A stretch of DNA of 36,593 bases from a virus (lineage: Duplodnaviria; Caudoviricetes), in the IMG/VR virus record IMGVR_UViG_3300031949_000106, positions 1-36,593 of that record. One strand, 5' to 3'. A model generated the notes under the pieces. It did not search any database, was not told the DNA's origin, and was given only the letters and a program-made list of their open reading frames with translations. A program made the translations under genes and the position numbers. Below are positions 13,541 through 36,593 of this stretch, in pieces; position 1 is the first letter of the stretch, and the number at the start of each line of letters is the position of its first letter.

Positions 13541-16033
13541 TCAAAACGGAATATCTCCCTGCTTATTACTCGGTTCATAAACCGGATCCGTCTCAGTTTC
13601 AACCGCCGACAACTGCGAATTGCCATCCTTAATGAACTCCATATACTGACCGCCGGCCCCACATCGCGCCTCAAATGTCCAGCCGTTATATTCGGCCCAA
13701 GTCCGGCACCATTCGGTAAAACGGCGTTGGCCTAAGTTGTTTTGGTAATATTTGTCATCTGTATACTCCCGGAATTTATGAATTAGGTCTGCCTTGCTGA
13801 ACACGTCAGGAAGTGATAATTCGTCTTCAGCAAACAAAACAAAATCCGCATTCGTGTCTGCTTTCAGTTTGTTATATTCTAATGCAACATAATTAGGTTT
13901 GACCAGTCCAACATTCAAATAATGAACCAAACAGGCAATCATGTAATTATCAAAGCGCGTCCATTCCTCAACATCCCACTCAGTAAACGGTTCCCGCTTA
14001 AATTCATCTTCGGGCGTATGGTCCGGCTTAAAATATTTGTGAATCTCAATTTCAAAAATCCGGCGGGTAAATGAATCGCCTTTTGATTTGATCGCGTAGT
14101 TTGTTGTAATGGCTATTTTGGGGGCTACATCGAACGGAAGGAACACCTCACCGGTGTAGAGTTTACGAATTGTAAAACCGGTTGTTATCATCGAAAAAAG
14201 CTGTTCAAATTTGAAGCCCTTAATAATGTCATCAAGAAAAAGGACGTTTGTATCTTGTCCTATTTGCTGCATTGCGAACTGATTTTTTGAATCAAAATTC
14301 TTTCCGTCAAGGGTCACCACATTTCTAAGTTGTTGGACAAACTTCACGCTTAACCCTTTCCCGGTTCCCCCGGTGGGCTTGTCTGTCATGTTCTCGTCAT
14401 TAAAAATTATGACCGGGCAAAAGCTCGCCTTCTTAAACGTATGCATCAAAAAACCCATGCTCGCCCGGTACGCGCTTATTCGGTCGCCCTGTGAATTTGA
14501 AACCAGCTTAGCAAACTTAGCAACATCCGACTTTTGATATTCTTCTTTTTCAAGCTTGATAAAATCCCGCTTGATAATCTGAGTAGACCAAACCACCCCT
14601 TTAAACTCGCCGTAGTCATGTGTTTTTATTCCGGTCTTATCTGCCTCAACAATGCAATTTTGAAAGAACAAAAATGCACGGTCTTTTTTATCCCGGATCC
14701 AATCGACTTCTGCCGGGGCAACAATTGATAAGCTAGTCTGGTTGAATTTTGAAGAGTCCATGAACTCGTTGTATATTTCAATTCGGTCTGTTCGTTCCAG
14801 GTACGAAAGAATGAAATCCCGGATTTCCATGAAGTTGGTTTCAGTTGCAACATTCTTTTCTATTTTAAGAAACATGAATTTATCTTTGTTTATCTCATAT
14901 CGAAAGTACCCGTTCTTTTGCAGAAAATTACGAAGGGCGAAAAAATCAATTTTAAAAGCTCCCTTTTTCCCGTATCCCCAGAAAATCTCGAGATATCCAG
15001 GATCTTCTTTGGGCGTTGAGTTGGTTGGTGTTGAGTTGGTTTTTTTTTCTTCGTTCGGTTGTGGCTTGCCATTAGGCTGCTTTACTGGAGCGGCTGGCTC
15101 CTGGGGTGTCCGGGGCGGCATCTCGTACCGCTTAGCAAGTTCGCGGGCGGCGGCTGAATAGTCGCCGTTGTATTGAAGCGTTACCATAATGTCAAAAGGG
15201 TGATAACACCGGCGCGGCTCAAAGTCGGGAGAATTACTTGAAAATGGGTAAAATACATCCGGCGCAATGTGTCCGAATGTGGCAGATACTCCGGTTTTTT
15301 TCCCGGGCCGCCTCCAATGTTTGCCGCTTAAATGGATCCATCCGGCCGCCTTAAGCATCGACTTCGCTTCCTCCACTCCATCCCGGTTAAATAAGTCACC
15401 GGGGCGTTCGCCTTCCTGTCGTGGCTCCCGGCGGTCGGGGGTGTAGGTTGGATGGTCCGGCTCTTGGGTCTCGGACTTATCAAAACTCCGGCAATAAGAT
15501 AGCAAGGTTTCTCTCTCTTCCTCGGTGATGATCGGTATGTCTGTCAAGCTGCCGGACATTAGGGTATATCCTTTTGACGGCGCGCAAACAATTAAGCCGC
15601 CTTCGCCGCGCGTTTCGATTACCGTTTCTTTCCCGTCAACTGATAGTTTCTGATTGCCTTCAATCTTTGCGCAACGATAAAATAAATGATAGCCGCCGCC
15701 CGGGGTTTGCTCAATTGGAATGTCATACCGCTGTATGATTTTCTGAACCTCGTCAATATCCGTTAGCTCGTTAAATACCGACTCCGCTGTGTCCAGATGA
15801 TTGTCTATATCAATTACTTCCAAACTACCGGAAACCGCCCCGCAAACGATGCAAACGCCAAAGGTATTGCAGTCTTTGTAATTCCTAAAGGTTCCCAAAT
15901 CATACTGCTCCGGCGGCTTCTCCATGAACTTACGCCAGCCGGATAGCATGGAGGGATATTTATCGGATAACTTACAGGGCAAAGCCGAAAGGGCGGCTTT
16001 ATTGTATGCGAATAACGCTTTTATATGTTCCAT
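13541..16033 (-). CDS. Bifunctional primase-polymerase fused to a C-terminal P-loop ATPase/helicase
   Basis: Prim-Pol motifs VIDID, TPGGGYHLFY, IETRGEGG..V.APS; Walker A GGTGKG, Walker B LFLDD; acidic DIPF tail. Confidence 0.88.
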   Translation of the reverse strand: MEHIKALFAYNKAALSALPCKLSDKYPSMLSGWRKFMEKPPEQYDLGTFRNYKDCNTFGVCIVCGAVSGSLEVIDIDNHLDTAESVFNELTDIDEVQKIIQRYDIPIEQTPGGGYHLFYRCAKIEGNQKLSVDGKETVIETRGEGGLIVCAPSKGYTLMSGSLTDIPIITEEERETLLSYCRSFDKSETQEPDHPTYTPDRREPRQEGERPGDLFNRDGVEEAKSMLKAAGWIHLSGKHWRRPGKKTGVSATFGHIAPDVFYPFSSNSPDFEPRRCYHPFDIMVTLQYNGDYSAAARELAKRYEMPPRTPQEPAAPVKQPNGKPQPNEEKKTNSTPTNSTPKEDPGYLEIFWGYGKKGAFKIDFFALRNFLQKNGYFRYEINKDKFMFLKIEKNVATETNFMEIRDFILSYLERTDRIEIYNEFMDSSKFNQTSLSIVAPAEVDWIRDKKDRAFLFFQNCIVEADKTGIKTHDYGEFKGVVWSTQIIKRDFIKLEKEEYQKSDVAKFAKLVSNSQGDRISAYRASMGFLMHTFKKASFCPVIIFNDENMTDKPTGGTGKGLSVKFVQQLRNVVTLDGKNFDSKNQFAMQQIGQDTNVLFLDDIIKGFKFEQLFSMITTGFTIRKLYTGEVFLPFDVAPKIAITTNYAIKSKGDSFTRRIFEIEIHKYFKPDHTPEDEFKREPFTEWDVEEWTRFDNYMIACLVHYLNVGLVKPNYVALEYNKLKADTNADFVLFAEDELSLPDVFSKADLIHKFREYTDDKYYQNNLGQRRFTEWCRTWAEYNGWTFEARCGAGGQYMEFIKDGNSQLSAVETETDPVYEPSNKQGDIPF

Positions 16034-16088: not shown

Positions 16089-16973
16089 TTACTGACTTGA
16101 TGCAATAGCCTTAAATATTTGCAGGGCTATTTGCGGCACAATCGCATTTCCGTAGGCTTTGATTGATTCGTTTCTCCACTTAGGAAAGGTAATTCCGTCC
16201 AGTCTGTTGGAAATCCCATCATTTCCGCTACAAATTGGGGGTTGAGTTGGGAAGTTTTGCCAGTTTCTGTACTTATAACATCTTCCAATCTGCTCTTTGT
16301 ATCTGTCCGGACATTTCCTCTCATTCCGTTGGTAGATACTCTTGGTGTCGGCAGTAGTTTGTAAAACATCGCTGCATCCAATATGCTGTTCGGTCTGTTC
16401 TCTCCGTTCTTTCGGCTCATCATTGTTGTTGCTCCCTTTTCCAATAATCCTTGTACTCGTTCTGGATGGTCCCGTTGTACACTTGTTGGAGTAGGCCACA
16501 AAAAAGACCCGTTCTCTTTTGTGGGGTGCATTTTGGCTGCAAGCTGGAAGTATAACCGGCTGTACTTCGTACCCTTCATTTTCCAAGTCAGCCTGCACCT
16601 GCTCGAATACCAATCCGTCTGACCAATTAATAAGCCCAGGAACGTTTTCGCCCACGATGTAGCGCGGCCTGACCTCTCTAATAACTCTAAGCATTTCCGG
16701 CCAGAGGTTTCGATCATCTTCTGTACCTTTTCTTTTTCCTGCAAGGGAGAAAGGTTGACAGGGGAATCCTCCTGAAATAATATCAACTGTTCCTCTGTAT
16801 TTTGAAAAGTCTGTTTTGGTGATGTCTTCATAAGATTCTGCGTCAGGCCAGTAATAGTTCAACACTTTTCTTCCAAATGGGTTGATTTCGCAATGAAAAA
16901 CATTCTCCCATCCCATCCATTCAGCCGCTAAATCGAAGCCGCCAATTCCGCTAAATAAGCTTCCGTGTTTCAT
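16089..16973 (-). CDS. DNA (cytosine-5) methyltransferase, alpha chain (motifs I-VIII and X)
   Basis: LFSGIGG, GGFPCQ, ENV, RERVF, GNAIV; no motif IX in this frame. Confidence 0.93.
   Translation of the reverse strand: MKHGSLFSGIGGFDLAAEWMGWENVFHCEINPFGRKVLNYYWPDAESYEDITKTDFSKYRGTVDIISGGFPCQPFSLAGKRKGTEDDRNLWPEMLRVIREVRPRYIVGENVPGLINWSDGLVFEQVQADLENEGYEVQPVILPACSQNAPHKRERVFFVAYSNKCTTGPSRTSTRIIGKGSNNNDEPKERREQTEQHIGCSDVLQTTADTKSIYQRNERKCPDRYKEQIGRCYKYRNWQNFPTQPPICSGNDGISNRLDGITFPKWRNESIKAYGNAIVPQIALQIFKAIASSQ
16127..16831 (-). CDS. Nested alternative-frame methyltransferase beta chain (TRD-like repeats plus motif IX)
   Basis: 234 open codons inside the alpha gene; WPTP and LPTP repeats; LNPQFVAEMMGFPTDWT; true start uncertain. 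Confidence 0.75.
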   Translation of the reverse strand: MKTSPKQTFQNTEEQLILFQEDSPVNLSPLQEKEKVQKMIETSGRKCLELLERSGRATSWAKTFLGLLIGQTDWYSSRCRLTWKMKGTKYSRLYFQLAAKMHPTKENGSFLWPTPTSVQRDHPERVQGLLEKGATTMMSRKNGENRPNSILDAAMFYKLLPTPRVSTNGMRGNVRTDTKSRLEDVISTETGKTSQLNPQFVAEMMGFPTDWTELPFLSGETNQSKPTEMRLCRK

Positions 16974-17186: not shown

Positions 17187-17230
17187 GCAATTACGCAATT
17201 CATTCGTTATTAATCTATGATTTTTGTCAT
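17187..17230 (-). promoter_or_regulatory. Promoter: ATGAT-N4-GTCAT palindrome, 22 bp, then GTAATTGC
   Basis: Palindrome at 17217-17230 overlapping the helicase stop codon. Confidence 0.65.
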
Positions 17231-18928
17231 GTTTTGGCTTCCTCCCGCTCCTCCTCAAACTTCTCGATCTGAGACGCGCAAATTTCTCGCATCCGCCAAA
17301 CCCACCCTTGTGAATGTCGTTTTTCCTTTGCGTAATCTTCCAGACCCTCAACGCCGTATTTCAACGCAATCTGCCGGGTGATCCAGCCATTTTTATAGCC
17401 TCGGGCGTTGGCGGTCTTCTCCAAGTCCTCAAACTTAGAAAATTCTTTCAATATACTTCCATGGTCCGGGATAATATCGTAGTCGATGAGCTTTAGTTCA
17501 GCCATAATCAGTTCGCGTTCACTGTCGTAAGTGTACCCGCAAAAAGGGCATATCATTACAGACGGGGCAATATAAGCGCCGCATCCCGGGCGTCCTTTTT
17601 TATCCGGGGTGTAGCCGGTGTATTCGTCAATTTTCGCGCCTGGCCGCCGCTGTTTGCCGCATTCCTTCACCGGGGGAGCGCCGCCGCCTGTTGGCTGTTC
17701 GTGAATTAGGCTATATTGGCGTTTGTCCCGGTAGTTGCCAAGCCTACCGCCTAAGTGCCCGCCGTGTCCTCCAAAGTCCAATATATTGAAGTACTGCTTA
17801 CCTGGAAATGGTCGGCTCCCACGTCCGATTATCTGCAACCATAAATTATCTGATAATGTGTCCCGATCCATTATCACCGTCTGGATTCGTCTATAATTAA
17901 AGCCTGTAGTTAGAATTCCGGCGTTTACCAATATGCAAAACTCATCATCTTTCCACTCTTTTATGACCTCATCCCTCGGTCCTGACATTTCAGCATAAGC
18001 TGCCATGTAATTATCATACGCCGCTTTTTTCGATTCATACGCCGCTTTCTGTCCTTCGGTTGGATTATCCGGTAGTTTCGGTTTACTTACCGCTGATGTG
18101 ACAAATTTCGCCTTAATGCCGCGCTCATTGAACTCCCTACATGTTTCTATCACGTGTTGAATATTTATACAAAAACAAAGCGTAATTGTTCCGGGTGTAT
18201 GCTTTAGCCATTGATCAACAACCCCGGCGTACAGTTCAGGTCGGTTGAATTTTGCAAACATCTGATTTTCGTCATAGTCGCCTGTCTTGCGGTCGATCTT
18301 TACGTCCTCAGTCGATACCGATTCTACGCCATAATAACGATCCTGCACCAGTTTCCCCTTATTAATTAGCTCCTGAGTAGTCGGACCAATTACCAAAGTA
18401 GAATAGTCCTCGGCTAATTGCCGCTGTTTTCCGGATCTGGATGGTGTTGCCGTGAATCCTAATATGTACGCGCCATTAAAAACGTTCTGACCGTCTTGAA
18501 AAAAGTGATTAAATTCTTGTTTGTGGCATTCGTCTATTATGATAAGATCAAATGAGGCAAAGAACAAAGCCCAGTCTTTTGGGTATCGTTTCGGCTTGAT
18601 CCGGTTTTTCAAAGTCTGAGCCATTGCCACATAACAGCTATGATATTTTGGCGGTGGCGCCATTTGCCCGGCGGTGATCTTGTACGCTTTAATTCCAAAT
18701 TCTTGAAGCGTTCCCCCAGTTTCGGTCAGCAATTCTATCCGGTCAGTAAGGATTAGCACGCGGTTCTTTTTAGCTTGCATTTGCTTAGCGATGTAGCTAA
18801 ACATGACTGTCTTGCTCTCAGCCGCTCCCGGTTGGCGATTGCACGACAATATGTCTATGCCCTTTGGCCATCCGGGAGCGAGTTTCTTTTATTAATTGTT
18901 CCTGATAATCGTATAGCGTAATGCTCAT
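17227..18928 (-). CDS. SF2 DExH helicase (RadD/UvsW-like), interrupted by a 7-nt insert in Walker A
   Basis: 5' ORF 18928-18818 gives LYDYQ...QSPTGSG*; downstream frame resumes KTVMF, then DECH, TAT, TGFN, QIIGRGSR and a CxxC zinc ribbon. Confidence 0.88.
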
Positions 18929-18965
18929 AATGTGATTAATTTTCTTTATTAGCCGGTGCTAGTTT

Positions 18966-19262
18966 TTACAAATAACAAACCATTATCCCGATCTTTTCGG
19001 CTATCTCTTTTTCAATTTGCGCGCCCTTGGACGTTTGCCAGCAGGGCATCATGCCGATCATTTCGCAGTCACATAATGCCCGGACACAGTCGCGCATGTA
19101 GTCATTCCATGTTTTATCTTGATGAAATGGTGATACTTTCATCGGATTAATGACTTCAAATCCTTCTGAGATTAACGAGCTTTCGTACCGGTTGAACTTT
19201 TCCTGAGCTTCGGTAATATCTAGTCCGGTAATTTTGCCGGATATGTAGATTTTGTTTTTCAT
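18966..19262 (-). CDS. DUF4406 / nucleoside 2-deoxyribosyltransferase-like protein
   Basis: KIYISGKITGL...VINP...W.DYM...CE....M..W..SKGAQIE pattern; start reassigned to 19262. Confidence 0.85.
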   Translation of the reverse strand: MKNKIYISGKITGLDITEAQEKFNRYESSLISEGFEVINPMKVSPFHQDKTWNDYMRDCVRALCDCEMIGMMPCWQTSKGAQIEKEIAEKIGIMVCYL

Positions 19263-19314
19263 GTTTCGGTGTAATTTCAGCCCCGACAAACCGCCGGGGC
19301 TGTTTTTAAATCCA

Positions 19315-19716
19315 TCAGAACGGAATATCATCCCCTTCGCCTATCATCCCTGCCGCGTTGCTTTCTGGTTCGGGTGTTCCGCCGGTGACCTGATCCCACG
19401 CCACCATGTTTCCAAGGGTTGCCGGATATCTGGCCGGCGTTTCGGATTTCAGTGCATCCCGAATTTCCTTACCTGGATCCTGATTGACAATGTGTGTGGA
19501 TTTGTCATTCTCGAATTGGCTAGGTGTCTTGCGCGGCCATGCTGACCAGTCTAAATTGACGTGGTATTTGCCTTTGCTATCAGTTGCCAACTCAAGATGA
19601 TTTGCCGCCAAGGGAATTACAATACAATCCACTTCTTGACCGGCTTTGTTTTTCTTTTTTTCGATTACGCTTTTTAGGGCGCATAGGTCAAAACGGCCAC
19701 TCATGTTATTTGCCAT
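19315..19716 (-). CDS. Single-stranded DNA-binding protein (putative)
   Basis: Acidic C-terminal GDDIPF tip; near the annealase and exonuclease genes. Confidence 0.7.
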   Translation of the reverse strand: MANNMSGRFDLCALKSVIEKKKNKAGQEVDCIVIPLAANHLELATDSKGKYHVNLDWSAWPRKTPSQFENDKSTHIVNQDPGKEIRDALKSETPARYPATLGNMVAWDQVTGGTPEPESNAAGMIGEGDDIPF

Positions 19717-35760: not shown

Positions 35761-36593
35761 ATGAAAATTGGAGATTTATTTGTAAAAATAGGCGCGAATA
35801 CCAAGGGGTTCACGCAGGGCATCGGTAAAGCGAAGAAGCAAACAAGTGGTTTCAGTTCGGCAATGAAGCGAGTCGGGGGAGTCATTGCCGGGGCGTTTGC
35901 GGTAACTTCAATTATAAACTTCGGTAGAAAGGCAATCGGGGTTATAAAGGGGTTTGAACAAGCTAACGCCACATTAGCCGCGACGCTTGGGAAGAACATC
36001 AATCAAGTGGAGGAACTCACAAAGCAAGCCCGCGACCTTGGAAAATCAACGGAGTTCACCGCTTCGCAGGTTTCATCACTTCAAAACGAGCTTGCAAAAT
36101 TAGGCTTTAGTCAAAAGGAAATTAAGGCATCCGCAAGGGGAATTCTGGATCTATCATCCGCCACCGGAAATGACCTTGCAAATTCAGCGATGATTGCAGG
36201 ATCCGCGTTAAGGGCTTTTAATCTTGACGCTTCCGAGATGTCACGGGTCACTTCTGTATTAGCCGTGGCGACCACTAAGAGTGCATTATCCATGTCCGAC
36301 TATGCCAGCGGACTATCGACTATTGCACCTGTCGCAAAAGCTTTCGGGTTCACAATTGAGGACACAGTGGCATTAATGGGTAAGCTCCGGGATGCCGGGT
36401 TTGATGCTTCAAGTTCAGCTACCGCAACAAGAAACATCTTGCTTAATTTGGCAGACGCAAACGGAAAACTTACAAAGGCATTAGGCGGACCGGTCAAGTC
36501 ATTTGATGAAATGATACCCGCACTTGTCAAGCTTAGAACGTCAGGAGTCGATCTTAATTCTACATTGCAACTCACCGATAAACGGTCTGTAGC
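35761..36593 (+). CDS. Tail tape measure protein, N-terminal part (TP901-type core); runs off the end into position 1
   Basis: MKIGDLFVKIGANTKGF...ARDLGKSTEFTASQV..LQNELAKLGF; open to the window end; absent from the ORF track because it has no stop. Confidence 0.93.
   Translation, partial: MKIGDLFVKIGANTKGFTQGIGKAKKQTSGFSSAMKRVGGVIAGAFAVTSIINFGRKAIGVIKGFEQANATLAATLGKNINQVEELTKQARDLGKSTEFTASQVSSLQNELAKLGFSQKEIKASARGILDLSSATGNDLANSAMIAGSALRAFNLDASEMSRVTSVLAVATTKSALSMSDYASGLSTIAPVAKAFGFTIEDTVALMGKLRDAGFDASSSATATRNILLNLADANGKLTKALGGPVKSFDEMIPALVKLRTSGVDLNSTLQLTDKRSV
36335..36593. repeat. Terminal direct repeat (copy of 1-259)
   Basis: 247/259 identical. Confidence 0.97.

Follow-up and report, generated by a model that had tools for sequence, protein, structure and literature searches.

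How might a full-length helicase be produced from a phage gene whose Walker A motif is interrupted by an in-frame stop codon? The question is raised by the window, by which we mean the whole stretch of DNA analysed (36,593 nucleotides), a 36.6-kb contig of a soil tailed phage with terminase, portal, capsid, tail and replication genes. Its tape-measure gene runs off the end (35761-36593) and resumes at base 1 (1-1607), which suggests that the window is nearly a whole phage genome and circularly permuted. A member of the Bacteroidota is the probable host, since the best isolate matches of the sister protein are Cellulophaga, Nonlabens, Parabacteroides and Flavobacterium phages.

A seven-nucleotide insert splits the Walker A motif

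The helicase is encoded on the minus strand in two reading frames. The first (ORF1) opens at the ATG at 18928 as MSITLYDYQ and ends in QSPTGSG, its last codons being CCA ACC GGG AGC GGC (GGC at 18823-18821), while the second (ORF2) runs from AAG at 18813-18811 through a TGA stop at 17229-17227. Between them lies TGAGAGC (18820-18814), which splits the Walker A motif of a RadD-like helicase. The sequence-only reading had described a precise, stop-containing insert whose removal yields a 564-residue helicase; the reading frames (36+528 codons), the two ResIII matches and the intact motifs confirm this description. The features of the locus are as follows.

18821..18928, minus strand: ORF1, first 36 codons of the RadD-like SF2 helicase (Q motif and Walker A to its last Gly); from the sequence and Pfam ResIII (E 1.2e-5)
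18821..18823, minus strand: putative take-off codon GGC (Gly); codon from the sequence, role inferred
18814..18820, minus strand: 7-nt insert TGAGAGC, the coding gap; from the sequence, an intact relative and a Logan contig, with 40 related types at the same junction
18818..18820, minus strand: in-frame stop TGA directly 3' of the take-off codon; from the sequence, stop-first in 31/31 unbiased loci
18814..18816, minus strand: putative landing triplet AGC (equal to GGC at positions 2 and 3); AGC is last in 5/40 insert types
17227..18813, minus strand: ORF2, resume codon AAG (Lys of GKT) and the rest, 528 codons; from the reading frame, Pfam ResIII, motifs and alignment to the intact relative L001
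18867..18881, minus strand: 5' arm of a predicted hairpin (10 bp, 1x1 mismatch, 4 bp); from the fold and compensatory changes among 5 relatives
18822..18836, minus strand: 3' arm of the predicted hairpin, from the Walker A codons to the second base of the take-off codon; from the fold
18966..19331, minus strand: upstream neighbour, DUF4406 by profile search; relatives often have an HNH endonuclease gene at this place, the window none

Both helicase pieces match Pfam ResIII separately in profile searches, and the motifs DECH, GFTAT and QIIGRGSR (motifs II, III and VI) are intact. The features of a RadD/ResIII-like SF2 helicase are all present, namely the Q motif, Walker A (only if the gap is skipped), DExH, motif III and motif VI. 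The ORF2 product aligns without gaps to that of L001 (85% identity), an intact sister that reads GGG AAG at the junction. The best solved relative of L001 is E. coli RadD (PDB 6jde; phmmer E 3.6e-19), which has the SF2 helicase core in common with the window protein; RadD has an uninterrupted PTGAGKS, whereas the window protein is phage-encoded and its loop is split.

The insert is retained in a Logan contig of run X1, which spans 18660-19217 at a depth of 104.9 with zero differences. An assembly error, for which a check had been proposed from the sequence alone, is thus disfavoured at the level of contigs, which lose rare alleles, and in a run that may be the window's own source. The X1 contigs leave 17303-18423 uncovered, a hole that proves nothing. 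A search among sequencing runs listed one DNA run and no RNA run, a result that is neutral as to expression.

Inserts that open with a stop codon recur at the same junction

Is the insert peculiar to this genome? Among 14 related viral loci, L005 (52% identity) is interrupted by 5 nt at the same junction, and the other 13 are intact. Two unbiased scans, in which only the flanks were fixed and the insert letters were free over 1-30 nt, yielded 45 and 20 loci. Helicase Walker A motifs with an insert account for 16 and 15 of these, and the remaining 34 are intact motifs or matches due to chance. All 31 helicase inserts open with an in-frame stop (TAA in 20, TAG in 7 and TGA in 4; 23 types), and since random triplets would do so at 3/64 per site, the insert is not a product of chance. 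The set was enlarged by stop-anchored scans and isolate records. One stop-anchored scan returned 34 loci; two of these, L019 and L046 (the L005 contig), are helicase inserts, and the others look like chance matches; a genome scan gave eight loci, two of them real (L336, L338), and a metagenome scan gave two, with L483 left out as apparently the same record as the window. With lineages defined at 70% identity, unbiased scans, stop-anchored scans and isolates together provide at least 60 unique insert sites in at least 26 lineages, all at the Gly|Lys junction. A search of homologous phage helicases for such inserts at the same codon, as suggested earlier, was thus rewarded many times over, and the prospect raised with it, that the insert might be unique to this genome, did not materialise.

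The inserts comprise at least 40 take-off/insert types, 4-11 nt long and in frames 0, +1 and +2, and 40/40 types begin with TAA, TAG or TGA. The last triplet equals the take-off codon in 15 types, is another GGN in 13, in 11 agrees at two of its three positions with the take-off codon, and in the remaining type, where the landing match is poor (GGC...GAT), is GAT; 28/40 types thus land on GGN, and 39/40 end in a Gly or near-Gly triplet. Take-off and landing agree modestly in their wobble class (16/3/2/4, p 0.03). In one close family GGC, CGC or AGC comes last, in frame, after the same GGT-TAA. This variation within one family indicates that the first base is free and argues against the triplet being decoded.

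Such inserts are found, among others, in MAG contigs of Desulfosporosinus and Flavobacterium and in two cultured phages, P12024S and P12024L. The insert frequency is about 1%, with 16 insert loci against some 1,400 intact stretches with the same flanks, the latter being an estimate from 6/64 parts. Genes with such inserts are mis-annotated: GenBank starts the helicases of P12024S, P12024L and phiSP119-3 after the P-loop lysine.

Two ways of coping with the stop codon were rejected. Reassignment of stop codons does not fit, as all three stops are used, the lengths are not multiples of three and the window helicase itself ends in TGA. Re-initiation would find an in-frame ATG within six codons at only 7/60 sites, and its product would omit the Walker A lysine.

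A predicted hairpin ends at the take-off codon

The sequence-only reading had overlooked a predicted RNA structure: an arm about 60 nt upstream is complementary to the sequence that leads into GGC and takes in part of this codon. Positions 18881-18822 fold at -34.4 kcal/mol (z -5.97, 0/200 shuffles), and the first two bases of GGC close the stem, whereas the equivalent region of the intact sister folds at -10.1 kcal/mol (z 0.17). In synonymous-codon controls, with the peptide kept and the codons resampled, z was below -2 in 24/26 insert lineages versus 5/52 intact ones (p 1.6e-11). Positions -10 to -5 are paired with a probability above 0.8 at 59/60 insert sites as opposed to 6/122 intact ones, and the stem ends at -1 to -5 in 60/60 insert sites. 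The location of the 5' arm differs among lineages (near -39, -50, -61, -68 or -71), which suggests separate solutions to one constraint. Better folding of insert alleles than of intact ones is found in the 45 nt before the stop; a 54-nt folding window lost the window's own 5' arm (z -1.7), and 72 nt gave z -5.1. Folding was not enriched across the insert site (p 0.12) or 3' of it (p 0.16).

Base changes in the stems bear on the same point. Among five sequences selected for a fold in the same register as that of the window, pairing holds in 92% of cells, 4/10 pairs change on both sides and the covariation score was reached in 0/500 shuffles. A 14-bp stem in the LLVLPTGxG subfamily pairs in 98.6% of cells in 30 insert alleles versus 56.8% in 38 intact ones; its variation is mostly one-sided (G-C/G-U), with a both-sided change in one pair only. 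The first Gly of the loop is GGG or GGC in 25/25 insert lineages versus 25/52 intact ones, a bias that is absent from intein alleles (14/26) and is better explained by stem pairing. The peptide before the junction differs at three positions (p<0.02, uncorrected), a difference confounded by subfamily and by hairpin coding. Three intact alleles (L379, L346 and L357) have a strong stem at the same position, possibly through insert loss, pre-adaptation or GC-rich chance.

Stimulation by a Shine-Dalgarno element as in RF2 was considered and rejected, as the anti-SD pairing energy over -16 to -4 did not differ between insert and intact lineages (p 0.66). The GGGAG of the window sits within the hairpin stem.

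Inserts and inteins elsewhere in the loop

Stop-first inserts also occur at other codons of the loop. Four Staphylococcus phages (L486, L488, L489 and L490; about 1580-1610) carry them after the Ala codon of QSPAGSGKS. These inserts are 5 and 8 nt long (GCA-TA-GCA and GCC-TGAAT-GCA) and land on the Ala triplet GCA; in the two phages checked, the gene upstream of the helicase is Sak4-like. In the Listeria phage record OR846737 (L492:1185-1210), a 5-nt stop-first insert follows the first Gly of the loop (GGA-TA-GGT). Thus, inserts at Gly codons end in a Gly-like triplet and those at Ala codons in Ala, so that the last triplet tracks the amino acid on the P-site tRNA. This is what re-pairing of that tRNA predicts, while RNA excision or random scars predict no such relation. 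The hairpin is not universal at these other codons according to the folding predictions: none was detected upstream of the Staphylococcus inserts (z about 0), and folding at the Listeria insert was not above control (z 0.3).

A one-base insert, CCC-UAG, lies inside the helicase P-loop of the Streptococcus phages MK448955 (L493:1190-1215) and MK448858 (L538:685-710), and phage PP758850 (L539:690-710) is intact at this site. In L493 it is preceded by a hairpin (z -3.3), and 12 records, taken as a group, are at least 99% identical to this region. CCC-UAG appears to be a +1 shifty-stop form of this design.

An intein-like insertion occupies GK|T, one codon from the insert site, as 26 distinct alleles from 44 loci (L494-L537), mostly of about 340 aa, and 4/4 tested match Hint and homing-endonuclease profiles. 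The P-loop would thus be a homing target by two routes. Two insert-bearing helicases (L472:1-2214; L109:1-2205, minus strand) have an additional intein further downstream. Inteins in P-loops form a related known system (listed for PMC5050341 and PMC10643990). Hint-LAGLIDADG inteins and the inserts occupy the same loop of the same helicase family, but the inteins are about 340 residues long, in frame and removed at the protein level, none of which is true of the insert. That the insert is itself an intein or a group I intron was rejected, as it has 7 nt and no long self-splicing element.

Both halves of the gene are under selection

Relaxed selection, which the sequence-only reading had named as a sign against bypass, was not found among insert carriers. 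Two families were compared, one of 12 loci whose inserts are 6 nt long and one of 8 loci, some of them repeating a contig, whose inserts are 9 nt long. After the junction, dN/dS is 0.031/0.461 (all pairs) in the first and 0.028/0.347 in the second; before the junction, the values are 0.021/0.152 and 0.073/0.261, respectively. These substitution patterns indicate that both halves of the helicase gene are under purifying selection among insert carriers. Between the window and L001, dN is 0.107 and dS is near saturation (pS 0.70), so that this pair cannot show selection since the arrival of the insert.

In a midpoint-rooted FastTree phylogeny of the part after the junction (131 rows: 67 intact, 38 insert and 26 intein), insert alleles are scattered, several with a close intact sister (window/L001, L480/L363, L474/L418, L338/L013 and L005/L004). 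The tree shows the patchiness of the inserts and gives no direction of change. In most of the insert/insert pairs listed, similarity is higher over the 30 codons before the junction than over the remainder of the gene, and in the closest insert/intact pairs it is lower there. This pattern fits a 5' segment that travels with the insert, RNA structure acting as a constraint, or a combination of the two.

Endonuclease genes lie upstream of many insert alleles

A second feature overlooked in the earlier reading is that relatives carry an HNH endonuclease gene just upstream. The gene at this position encodes an HNH or GIY-YIG endonuclease in 17/36 insert loci (12 by Pfam, 5 by PHROGs) and in 0/65 intact loci (Pfam); the profiles assign these enzymes to NUMOD4-HNH, PHROG374 HNH or GIY-YIG families. 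Leave-one-out tblastn with 17 proteins from insert loci, a test that other nuclease families beside intact genes could escape, places an endonuclease within 900 nt upstream at 18/51 insert versus 0/85 intact sites, or in 15/26 versus 0/42 lineages. The other 33/51 insert sites are without a nearby endonuclease, and the window has no such gene or remnant near the helicase by tblastn over 900 nt upstream. By analogy with mobA, we infer that the insert protects its gene against endonuclease cutting: the mobA bypass insert is reported to block nicking, to outlive loss of the nuclease and to accompany other nuclease families (Manning and Atkins, bioRxiv 10.1101/2022.08.31.505936).

How the ribosome may pass the insert

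Taking the comparative data and the folding predictions together, we consider it very likely that the gap is crossed by a programmed ribosomal stop-hop driven by the predicted hairpin, and that the insert has spread as a homing cassette in the manner of mobA/gene 60. The ribosome would pause when UGA enters the A site, its peptidyl-tRNA-Gly still on GGC. The anticodon would leave GGC while the hairpin zips as mRNA exits, pulling the message through, and the zipped hairpin would hide the take-off codon from re-pairing. The tRNA would re-pair 7 nt on, at AGC, via positions 2 and 3, and decoding would restart at AAG to give the exact GSGKT loop, whereas terminating ribosomes would release a 36-residue peptide. 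A leaky hop could be tolerable for a helicase that is needed in small amounts. Forward drive by pairing of the exiting mRNA has been proposed for gene 60 (bioRxiv 10.1101/2024.12.09.627546). As to its origin, the insert would have travelled together with the 5' part of the gene and a free-standing HNH endonuclease gene whose target it would disrupt; the window phage would have kept the insert, and the nuclease gene is absent. Ribosomal bypass had already been put forward from the sequence, as a device that may throttle helicase output; the bypass itself gains strong comparative support from recurrence at the same codon, the stop coming first, the Gly-like triplet coming last, the use of three frames, purifying selection and the 5' hairpin. 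Hopping had been offered there as an alternative to a mobile-element scar; the two are probably one thing, with the insert co-occurring in relatives with an upstream homing-type endonuclease.

It is conceivable that the insert is instead a micro-intron, cut out of the RNA by an enzyme for which the hairpin is the recognition element. Inserts of 4-11 nt are too short to self-splice. Enzymatic excision would explain both the exact restoration in all frames and the conserved structure. However, it needs no in-frame stop at the start of out-of-frame inserts, yet all 31 unbiased inserts have one, nor does it need a last triplet that matches the take-off amino acid (Gly versus Ala), and the inserts have no common end sequence beyond the stop. 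RNA excision thus appears improbable.

A single-base frameshift or stop readthrough could decode the insert and add residues to the loop, and the window does offer a +1 path that would add Glu-Ser; the one-base CCC-UAG form in Streptococcus phages, at another codon of the loop, is a precedent of sorts. However, no one shift serves lengths of 4-11 nt in three frames, and the added residues would differ among types, with the Gly before Lys turning into Ser or Arg in several, whereas G and K are directly joined in 132/132 intact loci classified (the search patterns required G-K). Decoding of the insert is very unlikely on these grounds.

The gene might also be dead or dispensable, and the insert a scar left by repair or the footprint of a transposon, with GC duplicated on both sides of five bases, at a hot spot for nucleases or inteins. 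The flanks do resemble a short direct repeat, inteins with homing-endonuclease domains sit at the next codon junction (26 alleles), and the phage has a second P-loop protein, its primase. Against this stand the low dN/dS on both sides of the junction among insert carriers and the intact motifs II, III and VI of the window helicase; moreover, a scar would not be expected to begin with a stop every time or to come with a hairpin linked to it, and the lytic cultured phages P12024S and P12024L carry the insert. We regard a dead gene as highly improbable. An assembly or sequencing artefact has virtually no chance of being the explanation, since, although the direct support consists of contigs from one run that is possibly the window's source, the contig at depth 104.9 is free of differences and the architecture is found again in independent records, GenBank phage isolates among them.

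More tentatively, and as a proposal that we deem quite possible rather than probable, the stop-hop may be the work of a portable recoding module of about 70 nt that phages have evolved repeatedly. In this module, a hairpin within the coding sequence would zip to the P-site codon and throw the ribosome a few bases over the stop, with such efficiency that two paired bases suffice for landing. It would work on ribosomes of several bacterial phyla, give homing endonucleases a means of immunising P-loop genes by inserts of as little as 4 nt and be present in roughly 1% of the helicase family, where it may set the enzyme level by competition with release factors.

Comparison with known bypass systems

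T4 gene 60/MobA and the helicase inserts have several features in common (bioRxiv 10.1101/2022.08.31.505936, 10.1101/2024.12.09.627546): take-off at Gly, a stop next to it, a Gly-like landing and a 5' stem-loop (predicted here), together with, in part of the relatives, apparent linkage to an upstream endonuclease, which later loss often removes and whose family varies (here HNH and GIY-YIG). The stop or hungry codon directly 3' of the take-off codon is a stop in the window (GGC-TGA), but the matched landing codon of gene 60 is not seen: AGC agrees with GGC at two of three positions, so that helicase landing may mismatch at position 1, whereas gene 60 landing is exact. Gene 60 has a 50-nt gap with a take-off/A-site stem-loop, a Shine-Dalgarno sequence 5' of the landing site and a 3' slippage barrier, none of which the window has; its gap of 7 nt (4-11 nt in relatives) leaves no room for an A-site stem-loop, a Shine-Dalgarno sequence or an AU-rich tract. 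The take-off codon is on the 3' side of the stem in the helicase and on the take-off stem-loop's 5' side in gene 60. Unlike gene 60, the helicase gene is not split by a nuclease, and its inserts comprise 40 sequence types across distant phages. The linked endonuclease of gene 60 is absent in the window and is found at 18/51 insert versus 0/85 intact sites, its families being assigned by profile. Since the 50-nt gap, the A-site stem-loop, the Shine-Dalgarno sequence and the exact landing are lacking, the helicase insert, though likely similar in operation to gene 60 bypassing, falls outside that cassette family.

In the terminase of Streptomyces phage Hau3, mass spectrometry confirmed a 10-nt bypass in E. 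coli after UUA had been changed to UAA (PMC10732093). Hau3 (PMC10732093 and a 2016 review, PMC5009743) and the helicase insert have in common a short gap (7-10 nt) after a Gly codon, a proposed 5' stem-loop and a stop-hop with UAA. They differ in that the A-site codon of Hau3 is the rare sense codon UUA, which occurs in 3/100 genes and is proposed to be regulatory, whereas the helicase inserts are always stop-first. The word "homing" is absent from the main text of the Hau3 paper (PMC10732093). The layout of the helicase insert also resembles the synthetic stop-hops of Weiss et al. 1987, as relayed in later work (PMC5009743, bioRxiv 10.1101/2024.12.09.627546); those were low-level and had no stimulatory signals, whereas the helicase layout is natural, under selection and paired with a predicted hairpin. 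Natural in-frame stop hopping was not known according to the 2016 review (PMC5009743). The byps of Magnusiomyces mitochondria likewise combine many short inserts with tolerance of imperfect landing, but are 27-55 nt long, have an unused sense codon in the A site, are read by mitochondrial ribosomes and occur in many genes (bioRxiv 10.1101/2022.08.31.505936, PMC5009743). We found no report of stop-hop inserts in this helicase family in the literature covered.

Programmed bypassing is treated as rare in the literature covered, being confined to gene 60 and its homologues, the mitochondria of one yeast and one Streptomyces candidate. The helicase inserts offer 40 natural variants of a minimal design in which the predicted hairpin ends within five bases of the stop. 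The model of drive by pairing of the exiting mRNA thereby becomes testable on a 70-nt cassette without the other signals of gene 60. The inserts also suggest how homing endonucleases might, in general, protect ATPase motifs that are conserved. The KGWG before the Hau3 bypass, which we take to be the terminase P-loop, is not called so in the passages of PMC10732093.

Other genes of the phage

Two further loci on the minus strand deserve mention. A Prim-Pol protein of 830 aa (13541-16033) has its own P-loop, GGTGKG, and represents a second candidate helicase activity. A C5 methyltransferase ORF (16089-16973) fully overlaps a 234-aa ORF (16127-16831) in another frame. The end of the 234-aa ORF (LNPQFVAEMMGFP) resembles what we take to be late methyltransferase motifs, and the two overlapping ORFs may encode a two-chain enzyme like M.EcoHK31I.
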